A stretch of 64,000 nt of DNA from Escherichia coli (GCF_050320075.1 NZ_CP190018.1), one strand, 5' to 3'; numbered from the stretch's first letter, positions 22,120 through 39,841 are shown. Translations and numbers: made by a program. The notes: a model not told the origin generated them from the sequence alone.

Positions 22120-24549
22120 ATGACATTAACAAGACGTGAATTTATTAAACACAGCGGTATTGCCGCTGGGGCGCTGGTGGTGACATCGGCTGCACCGCTA
22201 CCCGCATGGGCAGAAGAGAAGGGTGGCAAAATCCTCACCGCGGGCCGTTGGGGAGCGATGAACGTAGAAGTGAAGGACGGCAAGATTGTTTCTTCAACAG
22301 GCGCGCTGGCGAAAACTATACCGAACTCCTTACAGTCTACGGCGGTGGATCAGGTACACACCACGGCGCGTATTCAGCATCCGATGGTGAGAAAAAGCTA
22401 TCTCGATAATCCACTGCAACCGGCGAAAGGTCGTGGCGAAGATACCTATGTACAGGTGAGCTGGGAACAAGCATTAAAACTGATTCATGAGCAACACGAT
22501 CGTATTCGTAAAGCTAACGGACCATCGGCCATTTTTGCCGGATCTTACGGCTGGCGATCTTCTGGCGTGTTGCATAAAGCGCAAACCTTACTGCAACGTT
22601 ATATGAACCTTGCGGGCGGTTATTCCGGGCATAGCGGCGATTATTCAACCGGGGCAGCACAGGTGATCATGCCGCATGTGGTCGGTTCTGTAGAGGTGTA
22701 TGAACAGCAGACCTCCTGGCCGCTGATTCTGGAAAACAGCCAGGTTGTGGTGCTGTGGGGGATGAACCCGCTGAATACCTTGAAAATTGCCTGGAGCAGT
22801 ACCGATGAGCAAGGGCTGGAATACTTCCATCAGCTGAAAAAATCTGGCAAACCCGTGATTGCCATTGATCCTATTCGCTCCGAAACCATCGAATTCTTTG
22901 GCGATAATGCCACCTGGATCGCGCCGAATATGGGCACCGACGTGGCACTGATGTTAGGGATCGCGCATACCCTGATGACACAAGGCAAACACGATAAAGT
23001 GTTCCTTGAAAAATACACTACCGGATATCCGCAGTTTGAAGAGTATCTGGCAGGCAAAAGCGATAATACGCCGAAGAGCGCGGCCTGGGCGGCGGAAATT
23101 TCTGGCGTACCGGAAGCGCAGATAGTCAAACTCGCTGAACTGATGGCGGCAAATCGCACAATACTGATGGCAGGCTGGGGAATTCAGCGCCAGCAATATG
23201 GTGAACAGAAACACTGGATGCTGGTGACGCTGGCGGCGATGTTAGGGCAGATTGGTACACCGGGCGGCGGGTTTGGTTTCTCTTATCATTACTCCAATGG
23301 TGGCAACCCGACGCGTGTTGGCGGCGTGCTGCCGGAAATGTCTGCGGCGATTGCCGGACAGGCCAGCGAGGCCGCTGATGATGGCGGAATGACGGCGATT
23401 CCTGTTGCCCGTATCGTCGATGCGCTGGAAAATCCTGGCGGCAAATATCAGCATAACGGTAAAGAGCAAACGTACCCAAATATCAAAATGATCTGGTGGG
23501 CGGGTGGCGGTAACTTTACCCATCACCAGGATACTAATCGTCTGATTAAAGCATGGCAGAAACCGGAGATGATCGTCGTTTCTGAATGCTACTGGACCGC
23601 AGCTGCTAAACATGCAGATATCGTATTACCGATCACCACATCGTTTGAGCGCAATGACTTGACGATGACCGGTGATTACAGCAACCAGCATATTGTACCG
23701 ATGAAGCAGGCTGTCGCTGCGCAATTTGAAGCGCGTAACGATTTTGACGTGTTTGCCGATCTTGCTGAATTACTCAAACCTGGCGGAAAAGAGATCTATA
23801 CCGAAGGTAGAGATGAAATGGCGTGGCTGAAATTTTTCTATGATGCCGCTCAGAAAGGTGCGCGTGCGCAACGCGTGACTATGCCGATGTTTAATGCTTT
23901 CTGGCAGCAAAATAAACTGATCGAAATGCGCCGCAGCGAGAAGAACGAACAGTACGTTCGTTATGGTGATTTCCGCGCCGATCCGGTGAAAAATGCGCTG
24001 GGTACGCCAAGCGGCAAAATTGAGATTTACTCCAAAACGCTGGAAAAATTTGGCTATAAGGATTGCCCGGCACACCCAACCTGGCTTGCGCCTGATGAGT
24101 GGAAAGGTTCCGCCGACGAGAAGCAGTTGCAGCTTCTGACCGCACATCCGGCACACCGTTTACACAGTCAGCTTAACTATGCGGAACTGCGTAAAAAATA
24201 TGCGGTTGCCGATCGTGAACCGATCACTATTCACACCGAAGATGCTGCTCGCTTTGGTATTGCGAATGGCGATCTGGTGCGTGTCTGGAACAGACGTGGT
24301 CAGATTCTGACAGGCGCGGTGGTGACTGACGGGATCAAAAAAGGCGTGGTATGCGTGCATGAAGGTGCATGGCCAGATCTGGAAAATGGCTTGTGTAAAA
24401 ACGGCAGTGCGAACGTGTTAACGGCGGATATCCCCAGCTCTCAGCTGGCAAATGCCTGTGCCGGTAACTCTGCGCTGGTGTATATCGAAAAATATACGGG
24501 CAATGCACCGAAGTTAACGGCGTTTGATCAGCCAGCTGTTCAGGCATAA
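22120..24549 (+). CDS. torZ: TMAO/biotin-sulfoxide reductase TorZ (molybdoenzyme, Tat signal)
   Basis: 809 aa from [31 protein letters not shown]... Start trimmed from 22102. Confidence 0.93.
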
Positions 24550-26783: not shown

Positions 26784-27140
26784 TCAGAAAAGAGAAGATT
26801 GCTGTGGAATAGCCGGAACTGCTCCGATCTCTGGAAGCGTTTTACGTAAGTCTTCCCACAGGGTATGTACCAGTTCCGGGGCCTGGGCAATATCTGGCGT
26901 ATGTAAAAAAAGATAAGGCGTAGTGGTCTGATGCCACTGCGCTAATTTTTGTAACCAGACCTGAAATAATTCCCGGTTTTGCGTCATATCATCACTACCG
27001 ATAAAACGGATCAGCGGATTTGTCGCCGTCAGTACAGCATGTACCGGAACTTTAGGTTTTTTTCGTTGAGCGTCGCGAATAGCTTCACTGTGTGGACGTG
27101 CTGCATGAACCGGGCGGCTGTCTAAAATCATCAAGGTCTA
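26784..27140 (-). pseudogene. yecE: yecE (DUF72) C-terminal fragment, separated from its N-terminal part by the 12.2-kb insertion
   Basis: ..ILDSRPVHAARPHSEAIRDAQRKKPKVPVHAVL..PQQSSLF continues exactly from the fragment ending ..GVNRVI at 39363-39841. Confidence 0.9.
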
Positions 27141-27157
27141 AATGCACTACATGGGCA
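27125..27157. other. attL (attB left half / AAAATCA core / attP right arm GTCTAAATGCAC)
   Basis: Chromosomal CTGTCT + AAAATCA + element TCAAGGTCTAAATGCAC. See the att reconstruction finding. Confidence 0.75.
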
Positions 27158-27193
27158 CCTAAACATATACATGTGATGTTGAGGTGTTAGAAA

Positions 27194-27209
27194 GGGGGCT
27201 GTTCAGCCC
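27194..27209 (-). terminator. Hairpin downstream of the 306-aa gene
   Basis: GGGGCTG (27194-27200) pairs with CAGCCCC (27203-27209). On the minus strand it is followed by CTTTCT. Confidence 0.5.
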
Positions 27210-27218
27210 CTGATAGAC

Positions 27219-28139
27219 TTAGTAATTATCCCTGACAACTTCATCATATCTTTCAATGAAGGTTAGTTGTTTATTACTTCCATTATAACTATCAACCCAT
27301 TTGTCTACAGCTTCATCGAATAGAAATAAAAAATCCGTATAATTTATATACACTACATTATCATAATATTGGGTTGGGTGACCTCTTTTACATACAGCAA
27401 TACTAAGACGTCTTTCTTTACCCTGAGTAACTTTGTGTGAATTAAGATTAGTCATGTGAAGCAATGAGTTCCTTAATTCATATAATTCGTCGGAAGTTAC
27501 TCCAAGTTTTTGTATATCTGAGTATGTATCTAACCAATTTTGAAAGACTCTTCTTTTGTTTCCAAACTCAATATAAGCTATAGTATCAATAAATGACATT
27601 AATAGCTTGAAGCTTGACAAGTAATGTTTTTTGTTAAACAGAAGCTTTATTGGTTCCATATGGTCATCATTAAGAAGTTCCTTAATGTGAAAACCATCAT
27701 CTTTCATATACTTATCAAGATAGTCTGGCAAGTCTTTTACACCTTCAATGTGATAGTTAGGTGTGTGCTTATTCCTTAATTGCTCTGACATTGATAACTG
27801 AATATCATATTGTAATTTGCCTTTAACAACGGGGGTGACTATAGCTAAAGGGTTTTCAGGTGCATTTTGAGCTTCTAATGCTAATTCAAACGGAGCAAAA
27901 GGATTACCAATCCGCAAATTTGCATTATATCTTTCAAGTGTCAATTTGTCATTTTCTAAAACAGAAGGGTGTATCCCATAAAATAAACGACAAGAAGCTA
28001 AGTCAATCTCCAAATTCCGCTTTAAAAAATCTAATTTTTGCGCATCATCGCCATCATGTTCGTGAGGTACTATTCCGGCATGTGTGATATGAACTCCATC
28101 AGGACTAAAGCAAAATATGTTGTAGATAATCTCTTTCAT
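27219..28139 (-). CDS. Hypothetical accessory protein with a C-terminal HEPN-like RNSLLH (Rx4H) motif; possible Abi-type RNase
   Basis: 306-aa ORF, very AT-rich, at the element edge. R223-N-S-L-L-H228 is encoded at 27456-27473, within a helical C-terminal half. The N-terminus has a His/Asp cluster, HITHAGIVPHEHDGDD. Confidence 0.35.
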   Translation of the reverse strand: MKEIIYNIFCFSPDGVHITHAGIVPHEHDGDDAQKLDFLKRNLEIDLASCRLFYGIHPSVLENDKLTLERYNANLRIGNPFAPFELALEAQNAPENPLAIVTPVVKGKLQYDIQLSMSEQLRNKHTPNYHIEGVKDLPDYLDKYMKDDGFHIKELLNDDHMEPIKLLFNKKHYLSSFKLLMSFIDTIAYIEFGNKRRVFQNWLDTYSDIQKLGVTSDELYELRNSLLHMTNLNSHKVTQGKERRLSIAVCKRGHPTQYYDNVVYINYTDFLFLFDEAVDKWVDSYNGSNKQLTFIERYDEVVRDNY

Positions 28140-28400
28140 ACCATTCTAACCTTCAGTGAAAATAAAGTTTTAACTATCATTAGATTATGAACAATCACAA
28201 TTGGCCTGTAAATAACAGGGCATAAACAGGTTCGTTTAGCTTGATTTTATCACTATAACTGTCTGATTTAACGGTAACTCACCAAGTATACACACAGTAA
28301 TTACACAATCCTGTTATTATGTAACTTATTGAAATATATAAATAATTTTTACATTCTTTGTTTGGGGTAAGCTGTGTAATGTTAGTCGTCCCTCTCCAGA

Positions 28401-28444
28401 CACTATATATAGTGCTATATACAGGACTATATAACGATATATAG
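28401..28444. repeat. CTATATA box array (12-bp period), including the 14-bp palindrome CACTATATATAGTG
   Basis: CTATATA at 28403, 28415 and 28427, plus an inverted copy at 28438-28444. Palindrome at 28401-28414. Confidence 0.7.
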
Positions 28445-28742
28445 ATGTTTGGTCACATGGTATAACTATCAAACCACTTAACGATTTCCTACGTGAAAGT
28501 TAGAAAGTGATAGTTATAGTTACCTTGTCAAATCTTCGTAGTCCCTTCTTAAAAAATCGTGAAAGGTAATCTTGTTATCTATACAGAATCTACGTAGATG
28601 CTTCTTAGTGCGCAAAACAGCTATTATGTTAAAAACGCACTGTATACGTATCAGTACTGATTTATAAGGGTTTTGTGTATTGGCTGATAAGAGGCTATAC
28701 AGCACCTTGAGAGCATGTCTTCTAAGTCATTGACATATAAGG

Positions 28743-28820
28743 TCACAGAAGTTTGTAGCTGTTACAGAGAAAACTGGATAGGACTTCACAGAACTATAAA
28801 ATGTTACAGCTATTGATAGG
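28743..28820 (+). repeat. Two tandem 43-bp units TCACAGAA..GTTACAG..GATAGG
   Basis: TCACAGAA at 28743 and 28786; GTTACAG at 28761 and 28803; GATAGG at 28777 and 28815. Confidence 0.65.
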
Positions 28821-28832
28821 TGAAATCTTCTT

Positions 28833-29050
28833 GATAGATGCTTTGAAGTGTGGTGAAGGCTTTTTGAGGTGGGGCTAAACAGATATCATGAAGAAAGTCA
28901 ATAGTTGATTCGGTTTATCGAATAAACCTCATAGATATTTTAAAATTCTGCAAAGGGGGTCACATAGCTGGTGTGACGGGTACTTAGCAGCTACAGACAT
29001 CTATCAGATATTTTTGAAGATTTTTAGAAGGGGAATTTGAAGAGGGGCTA
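28833..29050 (+). repeat. Two ~45-bp degenerate direct repeats ending in TTTGARGWGGGGCTA, 172 bp apart
   Basis: Copies at 28833-28877 and 29005-29050 align over TTTGAAG..GAAGG..TTTGA(G/A)G(T/A)GGGGCTA. Confidence 0.6.
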
Positions 29051-29249
29051 CTACGATTTTATAAAAATTTTCAGATTCTGAAAAGTTACTGTACAGAATA
29101 TGTACAGATATCTTTAAAGTATCTGTAAAAACTTTTAAGATAAAAGATAGATATCCCAGAAAGGATATCCGTTTAGAAAACCTATTAAGTATCTCTTAAA
29201 AGAGAGTAAACCTTGTCAAGAGTGATTGCAATAAAAATTTTTATTTCTT

Positions 29250-29912
29250 ATGTCAATTGAGTGTATTTTAATCGGGAAACATCATGGGGGTTCTGATTAC
29301 TGGAGAACTCCATTTTTGTTATTTAAGAACTTACACCGTGAATTTATTTTCAGTCTGGATGGTGCTGCAACTAAGCACGATACGTTATTACCCCGCTTTA
29401 CGGATGATATTCACAATCAGTCATGGGATGGTGAACGGGTATTCTGTAACCCACCATACAGCGACACTAAAACATTCCTCGTAAAAGCGTCTGAGGCAGA
29501 TTTATCGGTATTCCTGATACCGTACCGACCCCAAACCATATACTGGCTTAAGCACATCTTCACAAACCCGCTTTGCCATGAAATCCGTATTCTTCATCGT
29601 GCAGTTAAATACCTTCCACCAGCAGGGCATAACAGGCTTACTATTAGGTCGCCGTTTCCAAGTGCAGTCGTTGTTTTTAAAAAAGAACCACGCAGGCATG
29701 AAATTACGCAGATGGTTTGCTGTGCTGATACATTGCTACCGTTAACCATCATTAACAGAGGAGGCTTGAGAGGAAGGCCCACCATTTACCCACCTGAGAC
29801 GCTCGACAGCTTCATAAAACTATACAGGCAAGGCAAACCCATTAAGTGCATTGCAGATGCTCTCAGAATGCCTCTGAGCACGTCATACAGGATTGCTCAA
29901 AGGTTGAGCTAG
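29250..29912 (+). CDS. Phage Dam-family N6-adenine DNA methyltransferase with a C-terminal HTH extension
   Basis: GSDYWRTPFLLF..FSLDGAAT..W.GERVFCNPPYSD matches the phage N6A-MTase family (DxWxTP, LDxAA, NPPY). Residues ~170-220 (GRPTIYPPETLDSFIKLYRQGKPIKCIADALRMPLSTSYRIAQRL) look like a resolvase-type HTH. Confidence 0.75.
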   Translation: MSIECILIGKHHGGSDYWRTPFLLFKNLHREFIFSLDGAATKHDTLLPRFTDDIHNQSWDGERVFCNPPYSDTKTFLVKASEADLSVFLIPYRPQTIYWLKHIFTNPLCHEIRILHRAVKYLPPAGHNRLTIRSPFPSAVVVFKKEPRRHEITQMVCCADTLLPLTIINRGGLRGRPTIYPPETLDSFIKLYRQGKPIKCIADALRMPLSTSYRIAQRLS

Positions 29913-30016
29913 AATTCTCATAAATATGGTCATTTACAAGACAGGTGATTTAGATATTAAGAGGTATCCCTGTGAACAATAAATGACCAATCAGTAATTA
30001 TCCTGTGAAATAATTG

Positions 30017-30045
30017 TTGCAATTTATAATCACACATGGTATAGT
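30017..30045 (+). promoter_or_regulatory. Sigma-70 promoter with extended -10
   Basis: TTGCAA (30017-30022), 17 nt spacer containing TGg, then TATAGT (30040-30045). Confidence 0.6.
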
Positions 30046-30052
30046 TTCATAG

Positions 30053-30255
30053 TGGACTGATAAAAAAGTTCATGTCTTGAAGTGGTAACACTTGGGGAGG
30101 TGTCAGATGATTGACGTATATTAACCTCTCATTCATGGTAATACCTCAGCGTTTTAATCATCGTACTGTTTCAGGCATGGACTTCTTTATCAGTCCATCA
30201 ATCCCCCAGATATTTTAATCACACAGGCTAATCGGTTTTATCCGGTTGGCCTTTT
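30053..30255 (+). ncRNA. Structured ~200-nt leader or small RNA ending in an intrinsic terminator just upstream of rep
   Basis: 22-nt closing helix 30053-30074 / 30176-30197 (20 WC pairs, 1 GU, 1 AC). GNRA hairpin at 30080-30093. Hairpin at 30095-30130. Terminator stem 30226-30235 / 30242-30251 followed by TTTT. Confidence 0.5.
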
Positions 30256-30276
30256 CACGTATGAGGTAATTTATGA

Positions 30277-31245
30277 ATGAAAAAAGAAACTAATGCTTTT
30301 ATTATGGTAGATAAACGAGTTGCACAATTCCCTAAAACATTAAAGCCAATTGACCGCTTGGTATATTTCACTATGCTGGATGGTGCTGATTATTACGAAT
30401 CTAAGTTCGGGAGATACGCACCAAGTATTGACTATTTGATGGTTATGTCTGGTGCTACACGTAATACAGTTATTGATTCACTTAAGAGACTTGAGTCACA
30501 CAGACTTATCGAAAAGACCAATGTAAAGGGTCAGCAAAGTATTTTTAAAGTATTCACGTTGGATGAGCGTCCAGAGGTCTTATCAGAACCTACCCTTGAT
30601 GAGCGTCGTAGAGCTAAATTATCAGGTCAACCAGAATCTGACAGTAACCCAACCAAAAATTGGTTACCTACCCAACCAGAATTTGGTTACCTACCTAACC
30701 AGAATTTGGTTACATGTAATACTGAATATAAAGACAAAAATATAAATACTGAAGAAGAAAGACTAAAAGGGAACTTTGAAGAAGAATCTCTTAAGAAGGG
30801 AGCTTCGCTCTGTGATTCACATGAATGTGATATTAAAGAAGATGACTTTCTTTCTTTGGATGAATTAAATGATTTTCTCTCTATGAATGAATCTGGCCTT
30901 GATAGTGAAGCTACTAAAGAGGCTGTTAAAAAGGAAGATAAAATCTCTGATGTGAATATCGATAGTGACCATAAAAACACACAGTGCCCCGCCACTGATG
31001 ATGAGATGGACCCCTTCGATGATTACCTTGATGAAGAGTCAGAGCGTGAAAAAGCCATTAAGAGGGTAGAGAAGAAAAAGAGATTCGAGCTTGCAAGACA
31101 AAAGAACAAAGTATCGGGTTTAGACCCATTCGATGACAGTGACGATGATGACTTTTCTTTCACACCAAGAAAGAAACAAACTCAGGATGACAAGAAGCAA
31201 AAAATTAAACCGAAGATGTATTTTGCTGGTGGAGGTATGCGCTAA
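30277..31245 (+). CDS. Replication initiator (N-terminal winged-HTH, acidic C-terminal tail)
   Basis: 322 aa. The N-terminus ..IDRLVYFTMLDGADYY..YLMVMSGATRNTVIDSLKRLESHRLIEK.. resembles HTH_36-type Rep or lambda-O-like initiators. Iterons lie inside the ORF. SD GAGGT at 30263-30267. Confidence 0.55.
   Translation: MKKETNAFIMVDKRVAQFPKTLKPIDRLVYFTMLDGADYYESKFGRYAPSIDYLMVMSGATRNTVIDSLKRLESHRLIEKTNVKGQQSIFKVFTLDERPEVLSEPTLDERRRAKLSGQPESDSNPTKNWLPTQPEFGYLPNQNLVTCNTEYKDKNINTEEERLKGNFEEESLKKGASLCDSHECDIKEDDFLSLDELNDFLSMNESGLDSEATKEAVKKEDKISDVNIDSDHKNTQCPATDDEMDPFDDYLDEESEREKAIKRVEKKKRFELARQKNKVSGLDPFDDSDDDDFSFTPRKKQTQDDKKQKIKPKMYFAGGGMR
30629..30719 (+). repeat. Iteron array (candidate ori): three 23-bp units plus one degenerate unit, each with an AACCAnAAnTTGGTT palindrome, followed by an AT-rich tract
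   Basis: Units start at 30651, 30674 and 30697 (AACCA(A/G)AATTTGGTTACCTACC). Degenerate unit at 30629-30650. AT-rich tract at 30715-30760. Confidence 0.65.
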
Positions 31246-31541
31246 TGAAAGAATATCACGGTGAAAAGAGATACAAAGATTACCTGTTAAAGCGTTATAG
31301 CATTTCTCGTGAAGGCCACTTAATGAAGGATACTCACGGGGAAGTTTACCGGATTAGACCGAAGAAAGAAGGGAGGGATTATTTCTTTTACGATGGTGTG
31401 ACAGATTTAAAGATTGATGCTTTGAAGTTTGCGGCGCTGTATCATTATGATATCTGGGACTCAGTCCACCAGCTACGATTAAAAGACGGTGACCCCGGTA
31501 ATCTGAGGGCCACCAATATTATCAAGGGAAAGTGCCGGTAA
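31245..31541 (+). CDS. Hypothetical 98-aa protein, weakly NUMOD4/HNH_3-like (degenerate)
   Basis: ATGA overlap with the rep stop; GGAGG SD. YSISREGHL.. and VHQLRLKDGDPGNLRATNI loosely recall homing-endonuclease-type DNA-binding modules. Confidence 0.3.
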   Translation: MKEYHGEKRYKDYLLKRYSISREGHLMKDTHGEVYRIRPKKEGRDYFFYDGVTDLKIDALKFAALYHYDIWDSVHQLRLKDGDPGNLRATNIIKGKCR

Positions 31542-31550
31542 GTCCACCAG

Positions 31551-31727
31551 CTATTTATTTATTGAAATCTCTATCTCAACACGAAGAAGTTTAAGTCGAA
31601 TTGTAAGCTTTGTCTTTTTTGTAATGACTCGATTCATAACGCAAAACACCAATAGCACAATAAATACCGCAAAGCCCAACGAGCTAAAACGATGAGATTC
31701 AATAATTGCTGTGAAAAAATCATGCAT
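31551..31727 (-). CDS. Small single-pass membrane protein (58 aa)
   Basis: MHDFFTAIIESHRFSSLGFAVFIVLLVFCVMNRVITKKTKLTIRLK... AAGGA SD 6 nt upstream. Own promoter at 31778-31806 on the minus strand. Confidence 0.45.
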   Translation of the reverse strand: MHDFFTAIIESHRFSSLGFAVFIVLLVFCVMNRVITKKTKLTIRLKLLRVEIEISINK

Positions 31728-31777
31728 TAATTTTCCTTTTGCGAAAGGAAACAGCACCTGTATCAGCCCCTATAACC

Positions 31778-31828
31778 ATAATATCATGTAAATGAGATGT
31801 TGACAATATGTTAAATAAATGTTATGAT
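31778..31828. promoter_or_regulatory. Back-to-back divergent sigma-70 promoters with overlapping -35 hexamers
   Basis: Plus strand: TTGACA (31800-31805), 17 nt, TATGAT (31823-31828). Minus strand: TTGTCA (complement of 31801-31806), 17 nt, TATTAT (complement of 31778-31783). Confidence 0.65.
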
Positions 31829-31864
31829 TGTAGTATGAGTAAGAGATTTAAGGAGATTTTTACA

Positions 31865-32155
31865 ATGACTCACACAGTTACGCGCCTTTTGCCAGAGGCA
31901 TTTGAACGACTGGCAGCAATCAAAGCCAAATATCCCGATATGAAGCACACAGCGCTTGTTGGAGAGCTTTTAAAAGAGTCGGTAACCCTGACCCCTTTCG
32001 ATAACGTTAAGGGCGTTGCAGAGGGTTCTAAGGCCATCAGAATCACAACGGACCAACTGGAACTACTCAAAGCACAGTCCGCAGTAGCAGGTTGCTCAAT
32101 GATTCAGGTGTTAAGCGCAAAGGTCCATCAATTAGCGGATAGGCTGGGGGTTTAA
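31865..32155 (+). CDS. Tandem ribbon-helix-helix (RHH) protein, candidate switch repressor
   Basis: 96 aa. Two strand-helix-helix patterns (TVTRLLPEAFERLAAIKAKY..HTALVGELLKES and AIRITTDQLELLKAQSAVAG.SMIQVLSAKVHQLADRL). AAGGAG SD at 31850-31855. Confidence 0.4.
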   Translation: MTHTVTRLLPEAFERLAAIKAKYPDMKHTALVGELLKESVTLTPFDNVKGVAEGSKAIRITTDQLELLKAQSAVAGCSMIQVLSAKVHQLADRLGV

Positions 32156-32580
32156 TGCTATGCACATTTGATTATCATGCGTTTTATCGCCATAGAGGCC
32201 ACCTTGTCCGTGAGAATAGCGGAACATGGAAAGATTTAACTCGTAATGCTGAACCCTTCACACACCAGCAATTAAAATCCCGCTTCTCCAGATGGAAGAA
32301 TGCACCAGCAGATACTGGTGATTTTGAGATTATCCATACCTTCGATTATGCCTCAGAAGATGACCTTCACGATGCAATTAAGCTGATTGAAGACTTCAAT
32401 ACCTCAGAAGATGTGGATGGTGACAAATATAAATCCCGTGGTAACCGCTATAACCGTGATGATATCACTCAGGCCATAAATGCTGGTCAATCTCAGCGAT
32501 ACATTACAGAAAAATATGGTATTTCACGGAGACAGTATTTCTACGTTAAATCATTGATTAATAAAGACAATTCAAAATAA
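32155..32580 (+). CDS. Hypothetical 141-aa protein with C-terminal HTH
   Basis: TAATG overlap with the upstream gene. The C-terminus DDITQAINAGQSQRYITEKYGISRRQYFYVKSL resembles a resolvase/terminase-small-type HTH. Confidence 0.4.
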   Translation: MLCTFDYHAFYRHRGHLVRENSGTWKDLTRNAEPFTHQQLKSRFSRWKNAPADTGDFEIIHTFDYASEDDLHDAIKLIEDFNTSEDVDGDKYKSRGNRYNRDDITQAINAGQSQRYITEKYGISRRQYFYVKSLINKDNSK

Positions 32581-32741
32581 CCATCTCAGTAACGGTAGAA
32601 TGCACTTTACAGGCAGAGTTGCACCTTAATTTGATAAATTACCTTACCAGCCAGTGCAACTCCCTCTGTAACCCGCATGATTACTGGTCTCAGAATGGCT
32701 ATTTTAAGAGGTCTGAGATGTGTTTTGTAGGAGATTTAAAA

Positions 32742-33065
32742 ATGAACAACTTCCCATTACAGATTTTCGTTGATAACGACACCGCTATGATGGTGCAAAG
32801 CTTCAGTGATGCAGGTATTAGCATTGATTTTGACAGGCTGTTAAAGCTAATGGCTGATAATGAAGAAAACGTCTCTGACTTTATTCACTCGGTGGAGTTT
32901 AACGAGCCTCGAATGATGTTACCAATTACAGACAGTAATATGAAAAGATTGGTTATTGAGCAAACGAACAAATACAGTATTTCCCCAGAGCAATTTTTGA
33001 AAGGTGCTGTGACAATCCTGTACAGCGATAATATTTTGGTTACGGATTCCGTGAGGGTTCACTAA
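32742..33065 (+). CDS. Hypothetical 107-aa protein
   Basis: ATG at 32742 preceded by GTAGGAG. The longer ORF-track start (32619) lies in a structured non-coding leader. Confidence 0.45.
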   Translation: MNNFPLQIFVDNDTAMMVQSFSDAGISIDFDRLLKLMADNEENVSDFIHSVEFNEPRMMLPITDSNMKRLVIEQTNKYSISPEQFLKGAVTILYSDNILVTDSVRVH

Positions 33066-33142
33066 TGGGCTTAATAATTGCTTGGACGTTGCTTGGCTTA
33101 TTTGTTGGTTGCTGGGTAGGCAGCACAGTAAATAGAAATTGA
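33065..33142 (+). CDS. Possible 25-aa hydrophobic peptide MGLIIAWTLLGLFVGCWVGSTVNRN
   Basis: TAATG stop-start overlap with the upstream ORF. GAGGG lies 7 nt upstream. One predicted TM helix. Confidence 0.3.
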   Translation: MGLIIAWTLLGLFVGCWVGSTVNRN

Positions 33143-33166
33143 TGTTACCAATCTGTTAAAAAGCTG

Positions 33167-33195
33167 TTGACAAATAACCTTAAGCATGAGATGAT
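33167..33195 (+). promoter_or_regulatory. Candidate promoter, paralogous to the 31800 promoter
   Basis: TGTTGACAA..17 nt..GATGAT, compared with TGTTGACAA..17 nt..TATGAT at 31798-31828. Confidence 0.4.
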
Positions 33196-33636
33196 GGTAA
33201 TAGGGGAGAGCAACTCTCTCTTATTTTTCTTTCAAAATAATCCGATGGATGGATATTCTGAATTGGAAAGGTGCAATGCTTTTCGTCATGGCCTTTCAGT
33301 TTAGTCTGAGAGGCTATCTCAAAAAGTGCTTAATCATTCATTGAACCCTTTACAGCTTTGCCCTAACTCATGATTAGGGCTTTCTTTAAGAGTTTTTAAA
33401 CAGAGCTTTTAAAGAAAGTTTTTCCTGAAACTTCGTTAACGTTAAAGCAAACCTTCAAAGCCCTTCACAGATGAGGATGATTCCATGAATATCCGAATCA
33501 CCTATGTTTAGGGCTTTTTTCAGCTTTTAAAAAGCATACTTGGCAAACGCCTTTTAAGCCTCTTCTAAGTTCGAGGATGTCAGGTGTGCTTTTTAAAAAC
33601 TGAAACATAAATTATCTTAGAAGAGGAAAGGTATTA

Positions 33637-34341
33637 ATGGCTATCCGTGATGAAAATGAAATGATTATTGAAAACAAACCAAGTGCACTTGATATTCACG
33701 AATTAAGTTTGCGTGAATCTTTTGATAGAGCTTGGCGGGAATCACACGAAGTAAATAAAGGTCCATATATTCCACCAGAACCACTCGAGATTCCAAGAGT
33801 TGAAATTGATTTTTCTATGAACGAACGGTGTGAACTTGATTTGAAGTTGAAGCTACAACGCCGATATTTCCAAGCTATTAAAGACTCTCAAGAAGCAATG
33901 AGAAGTGTTTATGAGAAAATTCAGTCCAAGCTTGAAGACGAAATTGACGAAATGGCTATTTTGATGGAGCTTCAAACCAATCCTTATGCTTATTTCTCTC
34001 GACTAGACCGTGACGGTTGGGGGTATGACCCTGTAGAGATTGGTAAAGTGATTGCAGATTTACCAGAAGGTCAAAGGGTTATTCGTACGGAAAGGGCCAT
34101 CAGAGCGCCACATCAACTGTCTCTAATTGTTGCTGATAAATCACAAGCTGAGCTTGAAGAAATTGCCAAAGAGAAACTGATGAAAGCAAGAGAAAATGAG
34201 ATTAATTTGCTGAAATCAAGACTGGCTAAGCTGATTAGTGACCATCAAGCGCTGGCTAAGGAGTACCGTCAAGAGTTGGCACAGATTATCAGCTTCAATG
34301 ATTTTCTGAGTGTTCCACGAGAATTTAGCAAGGCTGTTTGA
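33637..34341 (+). CDS. Hypothetical 234-aa coiled-coil-rich protein
   Basis: Good SD (GAGGAAAGG). Charged heptad-like C-terminal third. No family recognised. Confidence 0.5.
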   Translation: MAIRDENEMIIENKPSALDIHELSLRESFDRAWRESHEVNKGPYIPPEPLEIPRVEIDFSMNERCELDLKLKLQRRYFQAIKDSQEAMRSVYEKIQSKLEDEIDEMAILMELQTNPYAYFSRLDRDGWGYDPVEIGKVIADLPEGQRVIRTERAIRAPHQLSLIVADKSQAELEEIAKEKLMKARENEINLLKSRLAKLISDHQALAKEYRQELAQIISFNDFLSVPREFSKAV

Positions 34342-34364
34342 TTATGAATTAAAAGAGGTGATTA

Positions 34365-34583
34365 ATGTATGAAGACCGTTTGGAAACTATCAAGGCAGTT
34401 TGTGAAAAACTTAAAAACCAACCACGTAAACCAAAAACGGTAAAGAGTAAGCATCAGCCTGTCACCTCAAACAGCAAAATAAAGATTCGCAAAATTCCTT
34501 CGTGGTGCATTGACCGTATTCCGGTTGGTTCAAGAATTATTCGTGAAGATGGTGATTATCATTGGGTATCAGTTGTTGGTTAG
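34365..34583 (+). CDS. Hypothetical 72-aa basic protein
   Basis: AAGAGGTG SD. No family recognised. Confidence 0.45.
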   Translation: MYEDRLETIKAVCEKLKNQPRKPKTVKSKHQPVTSNSKIKIRKIPSWCIDRIPVGSRIIREDGDYHWVSVVG

Positions 34584-34598
34584 TTAGTAAAAATCTAC

Positions 34599-34638
34599 GG
34601 GAGAGATTATCGAGTGATATCGGTAGCTCTCCCTTTTT
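34599..34638 (+). terminator. Intrinsic terminator immediately upstream of the tape-measure gene
   Basis: GGGAGAG (34599-34605) pairs with CTCTCCC (34627-34633), with an inner helix, followed by TTTTT. Confidence 0.7.
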
Positions 34639-34671
34639 CGTATATGAACACTTAAGAGGTGAAAAATATGA

Positions 34672-36804
34672 ATGAGCAAATTCACAGTTGATAGTTTTAT
34701 CGTTGAATTAAGCTTCAATGAAAACATTATTAAGGGCTTGCAAAGAGTTGAAAAGGCAGCTTTGCAGTCAGCACAAAGAATTGAAAAGAACCTAAATAAA
34801 GGTTTCAGGATTAATACAAAGCAGCTTGATAGTAATTTAACGGCTTCTTTAGGGCAGCTTGAAAGGAAGTTTAATAAGGCCTTTGACAAGATTGAACAGA
34901 GAGCAAGAAATACTAAAGCTTTCCAGTTTACCACCAGATTTAATGACACTGTTAATCCTCCAAAACAACCGAGACAGCCACGAATTAGCGGCAACAGAGC
35001 AATCACAGCAGCTTACTCAGCGAATATGAGCAAGCTAAAAGGCTTTGACCCTATTTTGCAGAAATACATCAAATCTCAGTTTTACGGGCTATCTGCTAAA
35101 GCCGGTTCAATGGATTCTTCAAAATTCAATGAGAAGTTAGCTCAGTTAAACGCTTCAGTCAGAGAAGCAATTGCTAAAGCCAGAGGTCATACATCCACCA
35201 GCATTAATGGTGACAGAGCAGCTAATAGTCTTGATAACCTGTCTTCAGCAGCAGTTAAAACAGCAGGTGCATTTATCTCAATGCAGGCTGTATTAGCCAG
35301 TTATCAGAAGATTATGGAAATTGGTTTACAGCGTGCAAGTGCTGAACGTTCAATTGATTTCGTATTTGATAAAGATGCAGGTCAAGTAAAAGAGTTCACA
35401 AAGTCATTAGCTCAAACAACGGGTTTAGATATCGCTGAACTGCAATCACAGTTTGCTGGTTTTGGTGCTTCAGCTAAAGAGTCTATGGGCATTCAAGGTT
35501 CTGAAGAACTTTTTAAAAATATGATTGGCTATGCTCGTCTGATGGGGAGAAGTGAAGAAGAGATTAAGCGAGCACTGACAGCATTATCACAGATGGCTGG
35601 TAAGGGTCAGGTTATGGCTGAAGAGCTTAAGGGGCAATTAGCTGAAGCTGTTCCTGGTATGGTTCAGGTATTCGCTAAAGCAACCGGAAGGAATGAACAA
35701 GAGCTATTTGATGCCATGAAGAAGGGGGCTTTAAAATCTGCCGATACTCTTCAGAAGGTCACTCAGGAACTGAATAAACAAATCACCGCTAAAGGTGGCT
35801 GGAAAGCTATTTCAGAAAGTACACAGGCACAACTAGGGAACCTGAAAAACTCTTGGAATACCACGCTTGATAGTATCTTCAGAGGTTCTGAAGATGGTCT
35901 GCAAGATTTTACAAGAAGCTTAACAACGCTTTTAAACGCTCTTGGTGGAAGTGGTAAAAGTCTTGGTGAATCTCTTGGTAGTCTCATGACTTCTATGTCA
36001 CATGGTGTCGATTCATTGACTGATATCAGCTACAGGGTAAGAGCATTCTTCGATGAGGTGACATTAGCTTACCGTTCACTAAATGACACTCAGAAAAAAA
36101 TTGTTGATGGTTTATCTGATGGGTTAATTGATGGTTTGAAGATGCTTGCCGTAGCTGTTACTGCTCAAAAGGCTGCAAATGTAGCTGGAGGCTTGTTAAA
36201 CCTTGCAAATGCTGTTACTTCATTCGGTGATGCTGTTAATAAAGCTAAAGCTGGCAAGGCTGGTTCTTCAGGTGGTGCGCTAAATAAAGTTGGTAGAGTT
36301 GTTCTTTATGCTGAGTTGGTGAACTTTGCTCTTGATAATTTAAACCCTGAAGCGGCTAAGAATCCGAACTTACACCAATCAGGTATTGGAACAGAGACAA
36401 ACTTCAACCCTGAATACAAAGGCGATTCATCTAAACCAAACCAAATTAATGATGGATGGGCTAAGATTGGTAGTTCTATCGCTGACTGGTTTAATGGTGC
36501 GGCTAATAAAATTGCTAACTTCCAAGACCCGATGAATAACTTTGTTAATAACACACAATCAACTCCACCAGCTATCACAGGTGACATGGTTAATAGCAAT
36601 GCTCAACTTGCTATGGCTGTATCAGAGTTAGGAAGAAAGGTAGACGCTTTAACAGTAGAAGCTAAGAAGCCTTTATCAGTTAATATCAAAGGTGAAGCAA
36701 TTGTTAGACCGGATGAACCAGCTTTCTTTACTTTCAATCAATCAGCTAATGACCAGTTCACGCAGGATATGCTCTTAAGTTCAAGCTATCCAGAGGAAGA
36801 ATGA
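34672..36804 (+). CDS. Phage tail tape measure protein
   Basis: 710 aa. The segment ..RALTALSQMAGKGQVMAEELKGQLAEAVPGMVQVFAKATGRNEQELFDAMKKGALKS.. matches the conserved tape-measure core (lambda-type tape_meas domain). Long helical, Gly/Ala-rich remainder. Confidence 0.8.
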   Translation: MSKFTVDSFIVELSFNENIIKGLQRVEKAALQSAQRIEKNLNKGFRINTKQLDSNLTASLGQLERKFNKAFDKIEQRARNTKAFQFTTRFNDTVNPPKQPRQPRISGNRAITAAYSANMSKLKGFDPILQKYIKSQFYGLSAKAGSMDSSKFNEKLAQLNASVREAIAKARGHTSTSINGDRAANSLDNLSSAAVKTAGAFISMQAVLASYQKIMEIGLQRASAERSIDFVFDKDAGQVKEFTKSLAQTTGLDIAELQSQFAGFGASAKESMGIQGSEELFKNMIGYARLMGRSEEEIKRALTALSQMAGKGQVMAEELKGQLAEAVPGMVQVFAKATGRNEQELFDAMKKGALKSADTLQKVTQELNKQITAKGGWKAISESTQAQLGNLKNSWNTTLDSIFRGSEDGLQDFTRSLTTLLNALGGSGKSLGESLGSLMTSMSHGVDSLTDISYRVRAFFDEVTLAYRSLNDTQKKIVDGLSDGLIDGLKMLAVAVTAQKAANVAGGLLNLANAVTSFGDAVNKAKAGKAGSSGGALNKVGRVVLYAELVNFALDNLNPEAAKNPNLHQSGIGTETNFNPEYKGDSSKPNQINDGWAKIGSSIADWFNGAANKIANFQDPMNNFVNNTQSTPPAITGDMVNSNAQLAMAVSELGRKVDALTVEAKKPLSVNIKGEAIVRPDEPAFFTFNQSANDQFTQDMLLSSSYPEEE

Positions 36805-36967
36805 TTTCTTATATATCCGTGTGCTACGTGATTTCTTCTGAACAGATATACCCACTAAAAATTATTTTTTACGTAGCTCACGCTTAACAGAGAAAATACT
36901 TATATATCAAAGGCTTGGTTAAAAATGATTAAAATACACTAAGCCTTTGAAATCAAAGGAGAATTTA

Positions 36968-37741
36968 ATGATTTACTCTAATCAGATTCGTTACAGTGGT
37001 AAAGATGGCGTTTACTTTCATCTACAAGGCCAGCCAGATAATTTCTTGTCACTATCAGCTACTGAGAACATGGAATTTGACAGCCCTATGATGGTTACCA
37101 CTCAAAATATGCAATCAGGGCAGACTGTCACAGATAATGTAATGCGTTCACCCAGAACTATTTCAATCAGTGGTGTGGTTGTAGTTGGTGAATCCGGTAG
37201 TATCCTTATCTCAAGAGATAATAAGCTGGTGGAAAACTTCATAGACACTCTTGAAAACTGGCGTGACCAGAAGCAAATTATCTCAGTTGTCTGTAAAGAT
37301 GGTATTAAGATTGACGACTCAATTATTACAAACTTTAAAGCCTCTAAAGATGTTGGTATTGCCAATGGTCTTAGAATCCAATTAACTTTTCAGGAAATTA
37401 ACTTTAAAGCTATTGTGGGTCAGACTGATATCTCGGCTGCGACCGGAAGGACTTCTACCACAAGTGATGGTGGTGCTACCAGTAAAAAGAATACAGGGAA
37501 CACTACGACAAGCTTAGGTAACGGTATGTTGATGTGTCAGGAGCTATATAATCGCTCTACGAGTGAACTTACTAATGAGCAACTTCAAGCCCGTATCAAT
37601 TGTGGTAAAAATGTCAGAGTTAAGAACGGAAAAAGCACCTTCTCAGATGCCGCTAATGAGCAAGCTTCAAAGGTGCTTAATAATGCTGGTACAGGTAGTA
37701 CTTTGAAGAAGTATTCTGTTAATCCTAACAAGCGATACTGA
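36968..37741 (+). CDS. Tail-tip or distal-tail-like protein (family usually encoded just after tape-measure genes)
   Basis: 257 aa from [14 protein letters not shown].. (AAGGAG SD at 36956). The pattern [30 protein letters not shown] .. [12 protein letters not shown] resembles Dit-like tail proteins. Confidence 0.4.
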
Positions 37742-37755
37742 CGATAGAATCTCAA

Positions 37756-39279
37756 CTATATGATAACCTCATCAACATCTATTAAACCCCTCTCAGTGAC
37801 TTCAGAAAGCGACTGTATAGCCTCTGTAACGTTGTCTGAGGGGTTTTCTGTTATTGGTAAGGTGATTGCTTTACCGTTGTGAAAAGTTACTTTACAGCGA
37901 CGTTTAGCAGTATTTAAAACGACCTCTTTAACAGCACTTTTGATTATCAGTTGTGCTTCAATCCTTCCCGCCTTTGTAGTCAAGTCACAATCAGACAAAC
38001 AACCCACATCAATAGATTTAAGGCGTTGTGTCTCCTTCTCGATATCCGCATCAACTTGTGATAGCTCATTCTTTAGTTGTCTTAGTTTGCTGGTAATAGC
38101 GGACAAGTCTTCAATTTCAAGTGATAGCTGTACCAGCTTTTCAATATTGCTTGAGATGTGTTCACGGTGTAGCTTCAGTGTGTCTATGGTATTCGTCATA
38201 TCGCTATCAAATCGGTCAAGACGAGATAGCAGGGCAAGCAATGTACCATCGGTTTGCTTACGTGAAAGTCCTTTAGCACTACAACGGTTTTCATTACGAA
38301 GAGGACAACGATAAATCCCGTTTCTTGTATCGCTAAAGCCTGTGATAATCAAAGCATGACCACATTCAGAACAACGGATAACACCTTTGAAAAGATTCAC
38401 AGCCATTGGCTTATCTGAAGCAGGTTTTCTACCGTAACGAGCATATGATAGTTGTTGAACTTTGTAGAATGTTGTTTCATCTATAATTGCAGGATAATAA
38501 CCAGATATCTCCTCACAGCCTTTAGGTGTGAAGTAACCAATTACAGAGCGATTCTTCAAAAGGTCTTGCACTGAGGTTTGACCAAACTTACCTGCTTTGT
38601 ACTGGTTAAGCGTCTGGTGACCTTCAGCATTAAGAGTTCTGACAATCTCCCAGATAGACTTACCCTCTAACCGTAGCTGAAAGCACCTCTTCACAGTCTC
38701 CACTTTCTCAGGTATCACAGAGAAGCTTTTACGGTCATCATTAAGCTTAAGCCATGCAGGACAACGCCTAGAAATCTTGATACCAGCTTTAGCAGCTTCT
38801 TTCTTTGCATCCCATGCAGCTTGTATACGCTCAGCCTTACGTAATGATTCCTCATGCGCCCTTTGCATTATCAAAATGCTTTTAATCAGAGCTAACGGGT
38901 CTTTAAGAGATTCCCTTGTGTAATGTTCACCATCGGACAGGGTGACTACATCTACACCAGAGCGAAGAATGTTTCTGAGTAGCTCACTTGCTTGGTCTAC
39001 GTCCTGACGTGAGAGACGGTCTAAACTCTCGATTAGTAGTGTATCACCAGCTTTAACAAGCCCTTTCTCGATAGCGGTTAAAAAGTCACCTAAGCCACCT
39101 TTCAAGTGCTTACCAGTGAACCCGCTAACGCCTAAATCACGAAAAGTAAGGGATTCATCCAGATAGTACTCAGGATGAGCCTTAAGCCAATCAGTGACCA
39201 TCTTAGCCTGTCGTCTTAATGAGTCGCCTCTGGATTGCTTCTCAGATGAAAACCGGATGTAACTGATTGCACGTTTCAT
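37756..39279 (-). CDS. Large serine recombinase (integrase)
   Basis: 507 aa. N-terminal resolvase catalytic domain (AISYIRFSSEKQSRGDSLRRQ), recombinase domain, Cys-rich zinc ribbon (CSECGH..YRCP..C), and C-terminal coiled coil. Confidence 0.9.
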   Translation of the reverse strand: MKRAISYIRFSSEKQSRGDSLRRQAKMVTDWLKAHPEYYLDESLTFRDLGVSGFTGKHLKGGLGDFLTAIEKGLVKAGDTLLIESLDRLSRQDVDQASELLRNILRSGVDVVTLSDGEHYTRESLKDPLALIKSILIMQRAHEESLRKAERIQAAWDAKKEAAKAGIKISRRCPAWLKLNDDRKSFSVIPEKVETVKRCFQLRLEGKSIWEIVRTLNAEGHQTLNQYKAGKFGQTSVQDLLKNRSVIGYFTPKGCEEISGYYPAIIDETTFYKVQQLSYARYGRKPASDKPMAVNLFKGVIRCSECGHALIITGFSDTRNGIYRCPLRNENRCSAKGLSRKQTDGTLLALLSRLDRFDSDMTNTIDTLKLHREHISSNIEKLVQLSLEIEDLSAITSKLRQLKNELSQVDADIEKETQRLKSIDVGCLSDCDLTTKAGRIEAQLIIKSAVKEVVLNTAKRRCKVTFHNGKAITLPITENPSDNVTEAIQSLSEVTERGLIDVDEVII

Positions 39280-39340
39280 TGTTCACCTCACCAATAGCAG
39301 TTGGGCTTGTACCAACCCCTAGATTGTATCGCTTTAGATG

Positions 39341-39369
39341 GTGTATTTAAACGTGTCTAATAAAAATCA
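39341..39369. other. attR (attP left arm GTGTATTTAAAC / AAAATCA core / attB right half follows)
   Basis: Element GTGTATTTAAACGTGTCTAAT + AAAATCA, then chromosomal CCCGATTAACG. Confidence 0.75.
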
Positions 39370-39841
39370 CCCGATTAACGCCGCGCTGATGTAAACCGCG
39401 ATTAAGCGTTTGTTCCTCTTCCCCTTTGGCGAAAAACTGTGGATGGCGGACTTCCACACCATAATTAAATTCGCCGGGAAGGGAATCGAGAAAATGCCAA
39501 AGCGCAGGCAGATCCCGTGGGCCAAATGTGGCAGGCAGTTGCAGCCAGTATTGCCCAATGCGCGGCGCTAACGGTGACATGCGGGTCAAAAATTCAGTCA
39601 CTAAATCATCGCAATGCCGTAATGCTGCCTGATGCGAAATGGTCGCCGGAAACTTAAAACAGAAGCGAAAATTATCTGTGGTCTGCTCACGCCAGCGCAG
39701 GACAACCTCGGATTTCGGCAGGGCGTAAAGCGTGGTGTTGCCCTCCACACAGTTAAAGTGGCGGGCATACTCTTCAAGGCTGGTGATCCCCAACCGCACC
39801 CATTTAGGATGCGACCATTGCGGCAGACCGATGTAAATCAT
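39363..39841 (-). pseudogene. yecE: yecE N-terminal fragment (159 native codons, then 5 element-encoded codons and a stop)
   Basis: [48 protein letters not shown] followed by FIRHV-stop read from element DNA. Confidence 0.9.

Follow-up and report, generated by a model that had tools for sequence, protein, structure and literature searches.

The closest known circuit to the one described here is that of the immI region of phage P22, in which a single operator allows the ribbon-helix-helix (RHH) repressor Arc to repress the divergent, overlapping promoters Pant and Pmnt (PMC2724298). Arc, of 53 residues, acts as a homodimer on inverted TAGA half-sites, the leftward gene of immI encodes a second repressor (Mnt), and the rightward operon has an antirepressor. 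Two RHH units carried by one chain are found in TraY, the relaxosome protein of the F plasmid, in AvtR of the archaeal lipothrixvirus AFV6, in VirC2 and DndE, and in engineered single-chain Arc. AvtR, of viral origin, regulates transcription and binds at its own promoter; the functions of DndE and VirC2 lie outside promoter regulation. Omega (pSM19035, heptads) and MetJ (8-bp met boxes) are RHH homodimers that bind cooperatively, side by side, on direct repeats overlapping promoters, with units of 7 or 8 bp. Among mobile elements, the PLE of Vibrio cholerae, a parasite of the virulent myovirus ICP1, integrates as a small island and encodes a large serine recombinase and its own replication initiator.

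The locus studied here lies in a stretch of 64,000 nucleotides of an Escherichia coli chromosome (the window, to which coordinates refer unless another sequence is named), within a low-GC segment of 12.2 kb (approximately 27135-39346, ~37-40% against ~52%) that splits yecE; its features are collected in Table 1. As in immI, it comprises divergent, overlapping sigma-70 promoters (here recognised from sequence and conservation), an RHH gene placed first on the stronger transcript, and a candidate operator inside the promoter core. Unlike immI, it combines a 96-aa chain holding two RHH units with direct 11-bp repeats, its leftward gene encodes a 58-aa membrane protein, no antirepressor was recognised downstream, and what would be a second copy of the operator is found at a distant promoter. 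The analysis confirms this anatomy, part of which had been described in a first-pass annotation, and strengthens the finding beyond its first description. In the favoured reading, to which about an even chance is given, one protein seated on phased repeats in the early control region of the island shuts both divergent promoters (P_R and P_L) and sets a third one (P2), the RHH protein being the likeliest to do so. The most interesting aspect is the tie of this region to what is probably a satellite-helper system so far undescribed.

Table 1. Features of the island and of its control region (window coordinates; aa, amino acids; SD, Shine-Dalgarno sequence)
Feature	Position	Strand	Characteristics
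yecE halves	26784-27134 and 39347-39841		
DNA adenine methylase gene	29250-29912		After a variable leftmost gene
O-like replication initiator gene	30277-31245		Followed by a 98-aa gene
58-aa single-pass membrane protein gene	31551-31727	-	Leftward, after the 98-aa gene and before the RHH gene; short N-terminus, hydrophobic segment, basic C-tail
5' UTR hairpin of the 58-aa gene	31732-31751	-	Arms UUUCCUUU / AAAGGAAA; UTR of 44 nt; 3' arm is the SD
P_L	31778-31806	-	-35 TTGTCA (complement of 31801-31806), 17-bp spacer, TGn-extended -10 TATTAT (complement of 31778-31783); predicted start ~31771
P1 repeats, candidate operator	31787-31824	+	TGTAA/TGTTG/TGTTA/TGTTA starting at 31787, 31798, 31809 and 31820, exactly 11 bp apart
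P_R	31800-31828	+	-35 TTGACA (31800-31805), 17-bp spacer, extended -10 TATGAT (31823-31828); predicted start ~31835
96-aa single-chain double RHH gene	31865-32155	+	SD AAGGAG (31850-31855); agrees with the RefSeq gene call
141-aa gene	32155-32580	+	Coupled to the RHH gene, start overlapping its stop (TAATG)
107-aa gene	32742-33065	+	Last gene before P2; in all relatives, 26-30% identical in distant ones
234-aa and 72-aa genes			After 570 nt of non-coding sequence 3' of the 107-aa gene
P2	33143-33195	+	TGTTA (33143), TGTTA (33154), TGTTG (33165), 11 bp apart, at -59/-48/-37
P2 core	33167-33195	+	-35 TTGACA (33167-33172), 17 bp, -10 GATGAT (33190-33195; CATAAT in most relatives), TGn kept
Structured leader or small RNA 3' of P2	33199-33387	+	5' hairpin 33199-33225, invariant hairpin ~33269-33288, hairpin 33291-33317, terminator-like hairpin 33360-33380
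Tape-measure protein (TMP) gene	34672-36804		
Dit-like protein gene	36947-37741		
Large serine recombinase gene	37756-39279	-	

Both hexamer pairs and their spacers lie where the first-pass annotation had placed them, every coordinate being right. From sequence reading and a consensus scan, P_R has a TG at 31820-31821 and 11 of 12 consensus matches, and P_L, in which TG is also present, has 10 of 12. They are the top two promoter-like sites of a consensus scan of 29000-35000, the third being located at 33167-33195. Promoter-like sites are not enriched across this interval (14 seen against 16.8 expected), so that the evidence of promoter function comes from conservation and not from the scan. 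The conservation set comprised 43 related loci (35 distinct intergenic versions), which were gathered using the RHH protein, hence blind to the promoter, and aligned. The -35 TTGACA is constant in this set save for one TTTACA, and both spacers measure 17 bp in 43/43 loci. Most loci have TAAGAT as the -10 of P_R, a second clade has TAAAGT, TAATAT also occurs, and TATGAT is confined to this window; the -10 of P_L is TATTAT, TAATAT or TACTAT. The TGn, T1, A2 and T6 are fixed in both -10 elements; A5 is kept as well in P_L and is lost by P_R in TAAAGT. Variation in both promoters thus falls mostly at hexamer positions 3-4 and at the n of TGn, which are the least important positions and the only ones substituted in P_L, as should be the case for extended -10 promoters that function. 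In the core (31772-31829), nucleotide diversity is 0.078 as compared to 0.18-0.25 in the flanking UTRs and coding sequences, and the core remains 78-90% identical where clades differ in the adjacent RHH gene by a synonymous divergence of 0.94-1.2; judged on these alignments, it is much less diverged than the neutral expectation. P_R and P_L are thus very probably real promoters, with activity predicted for both.

The description of the two promoters as back to back, overlapping and not jointly occupiable holds for the conserved elements of the 43 loci, and the predicted starts are 64 bp apart, a distance at which two polymerases are predicted not to occupy both together. A common -35 had been put forward as the essential feature of the arrangement, and this does not extend to distant islands: in one (L010) the two -35 hexamers are 6 bp apart instead of superimposed, the leftward one being the complement of a TGTTAA repeat, and in another (L007), in which the start codons are ~58 nt apart, an equivalent promoter pair was looked for and not found. 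The suggestion of a leaderless longer isoform starting from the ATG at 31835 was likewise not retained; the ATG is indeed present at that position, but it is open and in frame in only 13/43 loci, being ATA in about half of them, with indels breaking the frame in others.

The core is also a mosaic junction, on which left alleles (small membrane gene) and right alleles (RHH gene) are combined differently among genomes. One locus (L005) has a left half as in the window and a right half of the other clade, and the reverse is found in L002; recombination may therefore add to the conservation of the core. Within the leader of the leftward gene, CCTGTATCAG (31758-31767, about +5 to +14 of the predicted P_L transcript) has no variant in the 43 loci although the surrounding leader varies. 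The sequence CTGTATCAG was considered as a LexA-type box and rejected on inspection as too short.

The candidate operator is formed by the four P1 repeats, which are positioned at -48, -37, -26 and -15 relative to the P_R start and also span the -35 and spacer of P_L. The four repeats are intact in 42/43 loci, and the promoter core is devoid of dyad symmetry, the repeats being direct and spaced by 11 bp. The pattern ATGT-N7 repeated four times has one match in the 64 kb and 0 in 100 shuffles; the exact pattern TGTTR-N6-TGTTR-N6-TGTTR has two matches in the 64 kb, at P1 and P2 only, and 0 in 100 shuffles. Among 54 relatives, most of those covering both regions give two triplet matches, which map to the P1 and P2 positions and always to the plus strand; a third match is found in none. 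The 9-mer TGTTGACAA had been reported to recur at 33165-33173 and to suggest a shared operator. The recurrence was found again, whereas the 9-mer alone is weak, at least 2 copies occurring in 11/100 shuffles; since it belongs to the phased TGTTR array, it is best seen as the visible part of a stronger signal, the common cis-element being this array at 11-bp spacing.

It could be argued that real promoters are present and are subject to essentially no regulation, that promoter-like sequence (TG-TTGACA, TGT-TAnnAT) brings about the TGTTR periodicity as a side effect, and that the conservation is that of a recombination junction. Such an explanation would account for the coincidence of 2/4 P1 repeats with the -35 and the extended -10, for the reassortment of left and right alleles across the core, and for the superposition of the two -35 elements, as TTGACAA automatically gives 5/6 of a -35 on the opposite strand. 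It is nevertheless considered improbable: at P2, the -59 and -48 repeats are invariant without having any part in the promoter itself, the exact three-unit pattern is absent from the shuffled sequences, the triplet is restricted to the two promoters in relatives, and TGTTA is not enriched island-wide (27 observed against 19.7 +/- 4.3 expected).

The first-pass annotation had also assigned two RHH-like repeats to the 96-aa protein and had named structure prediction as a check, and the predicted structure agrees with this assignment. The model comprises a strand (residues 3-8), two helices (10-22 and 28-37), a linker, a second strand (56-61) and two further helices (62-75 and 79-94), i.e. two beta-alpha-alpha units whose strands are paired into an antiparallel ribbon, as in an RHH domain. 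Confidence in the model is medium (70.6 for the best of five, 54-60 for the others), and a single-sequence AlphaFold prediction was too poor for use (pLDDT 49). The best structural match is TraY of the F plasmid, followed by dozens of ordinary RHH domains (PutA, AmrZ, CopG, NikR, ParD, MazE, Arc, Omega), and Foldseek concurs; AvtR, VirC2, DndE and engineered single-chain Arc are also structural neighbours. Since the top neighbours mostly hold two RHH units per chain, the tandem character is backed at the fold level, and the protein very likely has an RHH fold, as far as a model can tell. At the sequence level, the two halves resemble each other only marginally (hhalign E 0.06), no curated RHH profile of Pfam, NCBIfam or PHROGs was matched (E <= 0.1 or 0.01), and a sequence profile search of the PDB returned spurious matches only and no relative. 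Membership of the TraY family was rejected (hhalign probability 0.5%, no Pfam TraY match, no relaxase or conjugation genes among those scanned), the island protein having no sequence homology with TraY. AvtR differs as well, as it belongs to another domain of life, has no sequence similarity to the island protein and acts on a different operator organisation, and the role proposed here for the island protein is not that of DndE and VirC2.

Six of the 15 family-invariant residues (H3, T4, R7, R59, I60 and T61) fall among the 12 residues of the predicted beta-strands (Fisher p = 0.003), which matches what an unchanged DNA target would be expected to leave in a protein that has otherwise diverged down to 37% identity. 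The family appears narrow, since an exhaustive HMMER search of 1.84 billion proteins yielded just 10 representatives, from Escherichia and Citrobacter; a scan of species-representative genomes gave one locus. Purifying selection acts on both the RHH gene and the 58-aa gene.

From these elements, the following mechanism is proposed for the region, which would act as the early control of the 12.2-kb integrative island. RNA polymerase would be engaged on one at a time of two sigma-70 extended -10 promoters whose -35 elements share 31800-31806. P_R would serve the RHH gene together with the 141-aa gene coupled to it, and probably also the 107-aa gene; P_L would transcribe the gene of the small membrane protein, the translation of which would be further limited by a hairpin hiding its ribosome-binding site; and P2 would head the leader of the TMP/Dit operon. 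A single sequence-specific protein would occupy the repeats in adjacent positions, all on one DNA face, and the bound protein would shut both divergent promoters and, via the upstream array, set the level of P2. The P1 array is placed in a way that suits repression of P_R and P_L, and the placement of the P2 array (-59 to -37) could serve activation or repression. The likeliest binder would be the single-chain double RHH protein, as the first product of P_R, the stronger transcript; it is a candidate whose chances are put slightly below even. Because each molecule would have one complete beta-ribbon, it could read the asymmetric repeat as a monomer, and P_R would therefore be negatively autoregulated, as is the case with Arc at Pant/Pmnt. 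The predicted mode of binding is akin to that of Omega and MetJ, from which it would differ by the 11-bp unit, equal to one helical turn, so that successive proteins would sit on the same DNA face.

Such a circuit would be a natural variant of the classic Arc-type design, in which a whole RHH pseudo-dimer is contained in one polypeptide and used with direct repeats at helical-turn spacing; three promoters would be controlled from two sites, and the region would offer a clean system for studying how asymmetric RHH proteins read and spread along DNA. The term "switch" used in the first-pass annotation is not appropriate, the leftward product being a membrane protein and not a regulator; for this reason there is no hint of bistability, and the arrangement is not a two-repressor switch.

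The leftward gene does encode a single-TM protein, as had been supposed. Its homologues (37-76% identical) have the same layout, with an N-terminal ESHRF motif, one hydrophobic segment and a basic tail of alternating residues, its dN/dS is 0.36-0.40, and it is annotated in some RefSeq genomes. The anti-SD stem of its 5' UTR is kept in three allelic versions with 2 compensatory pairs, evidence that is modest because it comes from only three independent lineages. At its other end, the gene converges with the 98-aa gene (plus strand) at 31541-31551, with 9 nt between the stops and no convincing terminator, so that transcription of the replication operon could run antisense through it. These traits could also indicate that the leftward unit is an own toxin-like or exclusion module, nearly silenced by the SD hairpin and by convergent transcription and only loosely linked to RHH regulation, for which about one chance in four is estimated. 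A type I toxin-like trait was found as a predicted structure, namely a small hydrophobic peptide with a ribosome-binding site masked by an mRNA hairpin, and distant islands also have a leftward small membrane gene; on the other hand, the general promoter scan identified no antisense RNA promoter, no known toxin or defence family was matched in Pfam, PHROGs, NCBIfam or PADLOC, and P_L overlaps the repeat array, which argues for co-regulation. Searches of the same four databases gave nothing useful for the 96-aa, 141-aa and 107-aa proteins either.

On the other side, the coupling of a downstream gene to the RHH gene was correctly reported. The genes downstream of the RHH gene belong to no recognisable family. 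Some relatives have other small genes instead of the 141-aa gene and yet keep the repeats, which disfavours the 141-aa protein as the repeat binder.

The region 33199-33387, 3' of P2, folds strongly (z-score -3.7) with some compensatory pairs (40 sequences): the 5' hairpin and the 33291-33317 hairpin covary, and the invariant hairpin corresponds to GAAAGGTGCAATGCTTTTC. It has no Rfam match, and some relatives carry another sequence in place of the terminator-like hairpin. From its sequence and predicted folding, it may be an RNA of ~180 nt or a regulated leader of the tail-gene operon. The hairpin 33199-33225 was rejected as a terminator immediately following P2, since its stem covaries but the T-run is absent in many relatives, and it is more likely the 5' stem of the P2 transcript.

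By its gene order (Table 1), the island places the control region at the junction of a replication module and of an operon leading to tail genes. Relatives of the island are also found at other chromosomal sites and are highly mosaic; matches to this region were obtained in 126 complete E. coli genomes, and to the wider 2.7 kb in 469. For the island proteins that were scanned, neither a capsid or terminase match nor a Pfam match to relaxase or conjugation proteins was found, and an Rfam search of the island gave no match. The nearest relatives of the island TMP are in Felixounavirus phages. With reference to phage vB_EcoM_AYO145A, the Dit-like protein is 68% identical (78% nucleotide identity over 544 nt) and the TMP is 27% identical over its full length, with both gene ends conserved at the nucleotide level and the same TMP/Dit order. 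The ends of the TMP gene and most of the Dit-like gene (34661-34801, 36776-36805 and 36992-37526) have 75-97% nucleotide identity with the phage, while the middle of the TMP is at 27% amino acid identity, which suggests that the parts contacting phage partners were retained.

A link outside the structural genes is provided by the non-coding segment 28934-29096, which matches a 1.55-kb gene-free region located between convergent terminators in 254 Felixounavirus records. This segment (also found at 2501-2664 of L058) includes a run of 27/27 identical positions, GATATTTTAAAATTCTGCAAAGGGGGT, with the phage block; the block common to island and phage is a candidate origin, packaging site or protein-binding site. 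In AYO145A, the gene-free region (14879-16433, i.e. 1.55 kb of 87 kb) contains 6 of the 7 phased TGTTR triplets of the phage (<=1 mismatch) and 26 of the 110 plus-strand TGTTA[AG] sites of the genome, densely arranged with 11-bp spacing. The motif and phasing of the island operator are thus those of the iterons of the presumed helper. The island is integrative, lacks a full set of virion genes, and has cis sequence and structural genes in common with a helper phage, as phage satellites do; a satellite or parasite relationship with FelixO1-like phages is probable, helper dependence being inferred here. Like PLE, the island is small and integrative and encodes a large serine recombinase and its own replication initiator, without capsid or terminase match among the proteins scanned and with sequence ties to a virulent myovirus; unlike PLE, it carries its own tape-measure and Dit genes. 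Literature searches on the island, on yecE insertions and on Felixounavirus satellites found no description of such an element and no paper connecting satellites with Felixounavirus.

The abundance of the 11-bp TGTTA repeat in the gene-free region of Felixounavirus means that a phage protein could be the natural ligand of the repeats. The repeats might then serve to sense the helper, an iteron binder of Felixounavirus, or else another island or host factor, binding P1 and P2 on infection and, for example, activating P2, with the RHH protein acting elsewhere (phage DNA, excision, replication). P2 and its repeats are identical even in islands with an RHH protein just 37% identical and a 107-aa protein 26-29% identical, an identity across very different regulators that counts against the RHH protein as the binder; the concentration of phased triplets in the phage array, the homology of 28934-29096 to sequence beside this array and the homology and synteny of the island TMP and Dit with those of the phage also speak for helper sensing. 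It is a serious rival, although less likely than not, as no candidate phage binder was found, and the invariance of the RHH beta-strand residues is that expected if the RHH protein reads a conserved site. The annotated Felixounavirus regulator was rejected as a counterpart of the RHH protein, being an unrelated, ordinary HTH_3 protein. No RHH homologue was found in phages, so that mimicry of a phage protein is not supported.

A broader proposal, given one chance in four, takes the control region to be the master regulatory node in E. coli satellites of FelixO1-like virulent phages, which would form a family not described before; the phased TGTTA operator would be the iteron motif of the helper, and hence either the satellite RHH protein would also target helper DNA (to interfere with or hijack it) or the iteron-binding protein of the helper would flip the satellite promoters on infection. 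Felixounavirus phages are widely used in phage therapy and typing, and a coupling of the island to its helper through the repeats, if it exists, could be tested directly in this small control region.

A further possible DNA-binding candidate is the methylase, because it is 86-88% identical between islands with identical P2 repeats; it has a C-terminal extension resembling a resolvase-type helix-turn-helix (weak HTH_7 match, on relatives). In two distant islands, two non-coding tandem repeats of ~100 nt, which are possibly origin iterons, lie in the interval separating the methylase gene from the leftward gene of a small membrane protein (L009, 6600-6830; L011, 7030-7230). The sequence TGTTGACA was tried as a promoter signature of Felixounavirus and rejected as weak, TG being present at 11/103 TTGACA sites against ~6 expected and 0 having flanking phased repeats. 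Just upstream of the island methylase gene, the segment 29132-29189, which contains GATATC palindromes, is 86% identical, in inverted orientation, to AYO145A 24261-24316, located just 3' of an annotated phage promoter preceded by TGTTGACAA.
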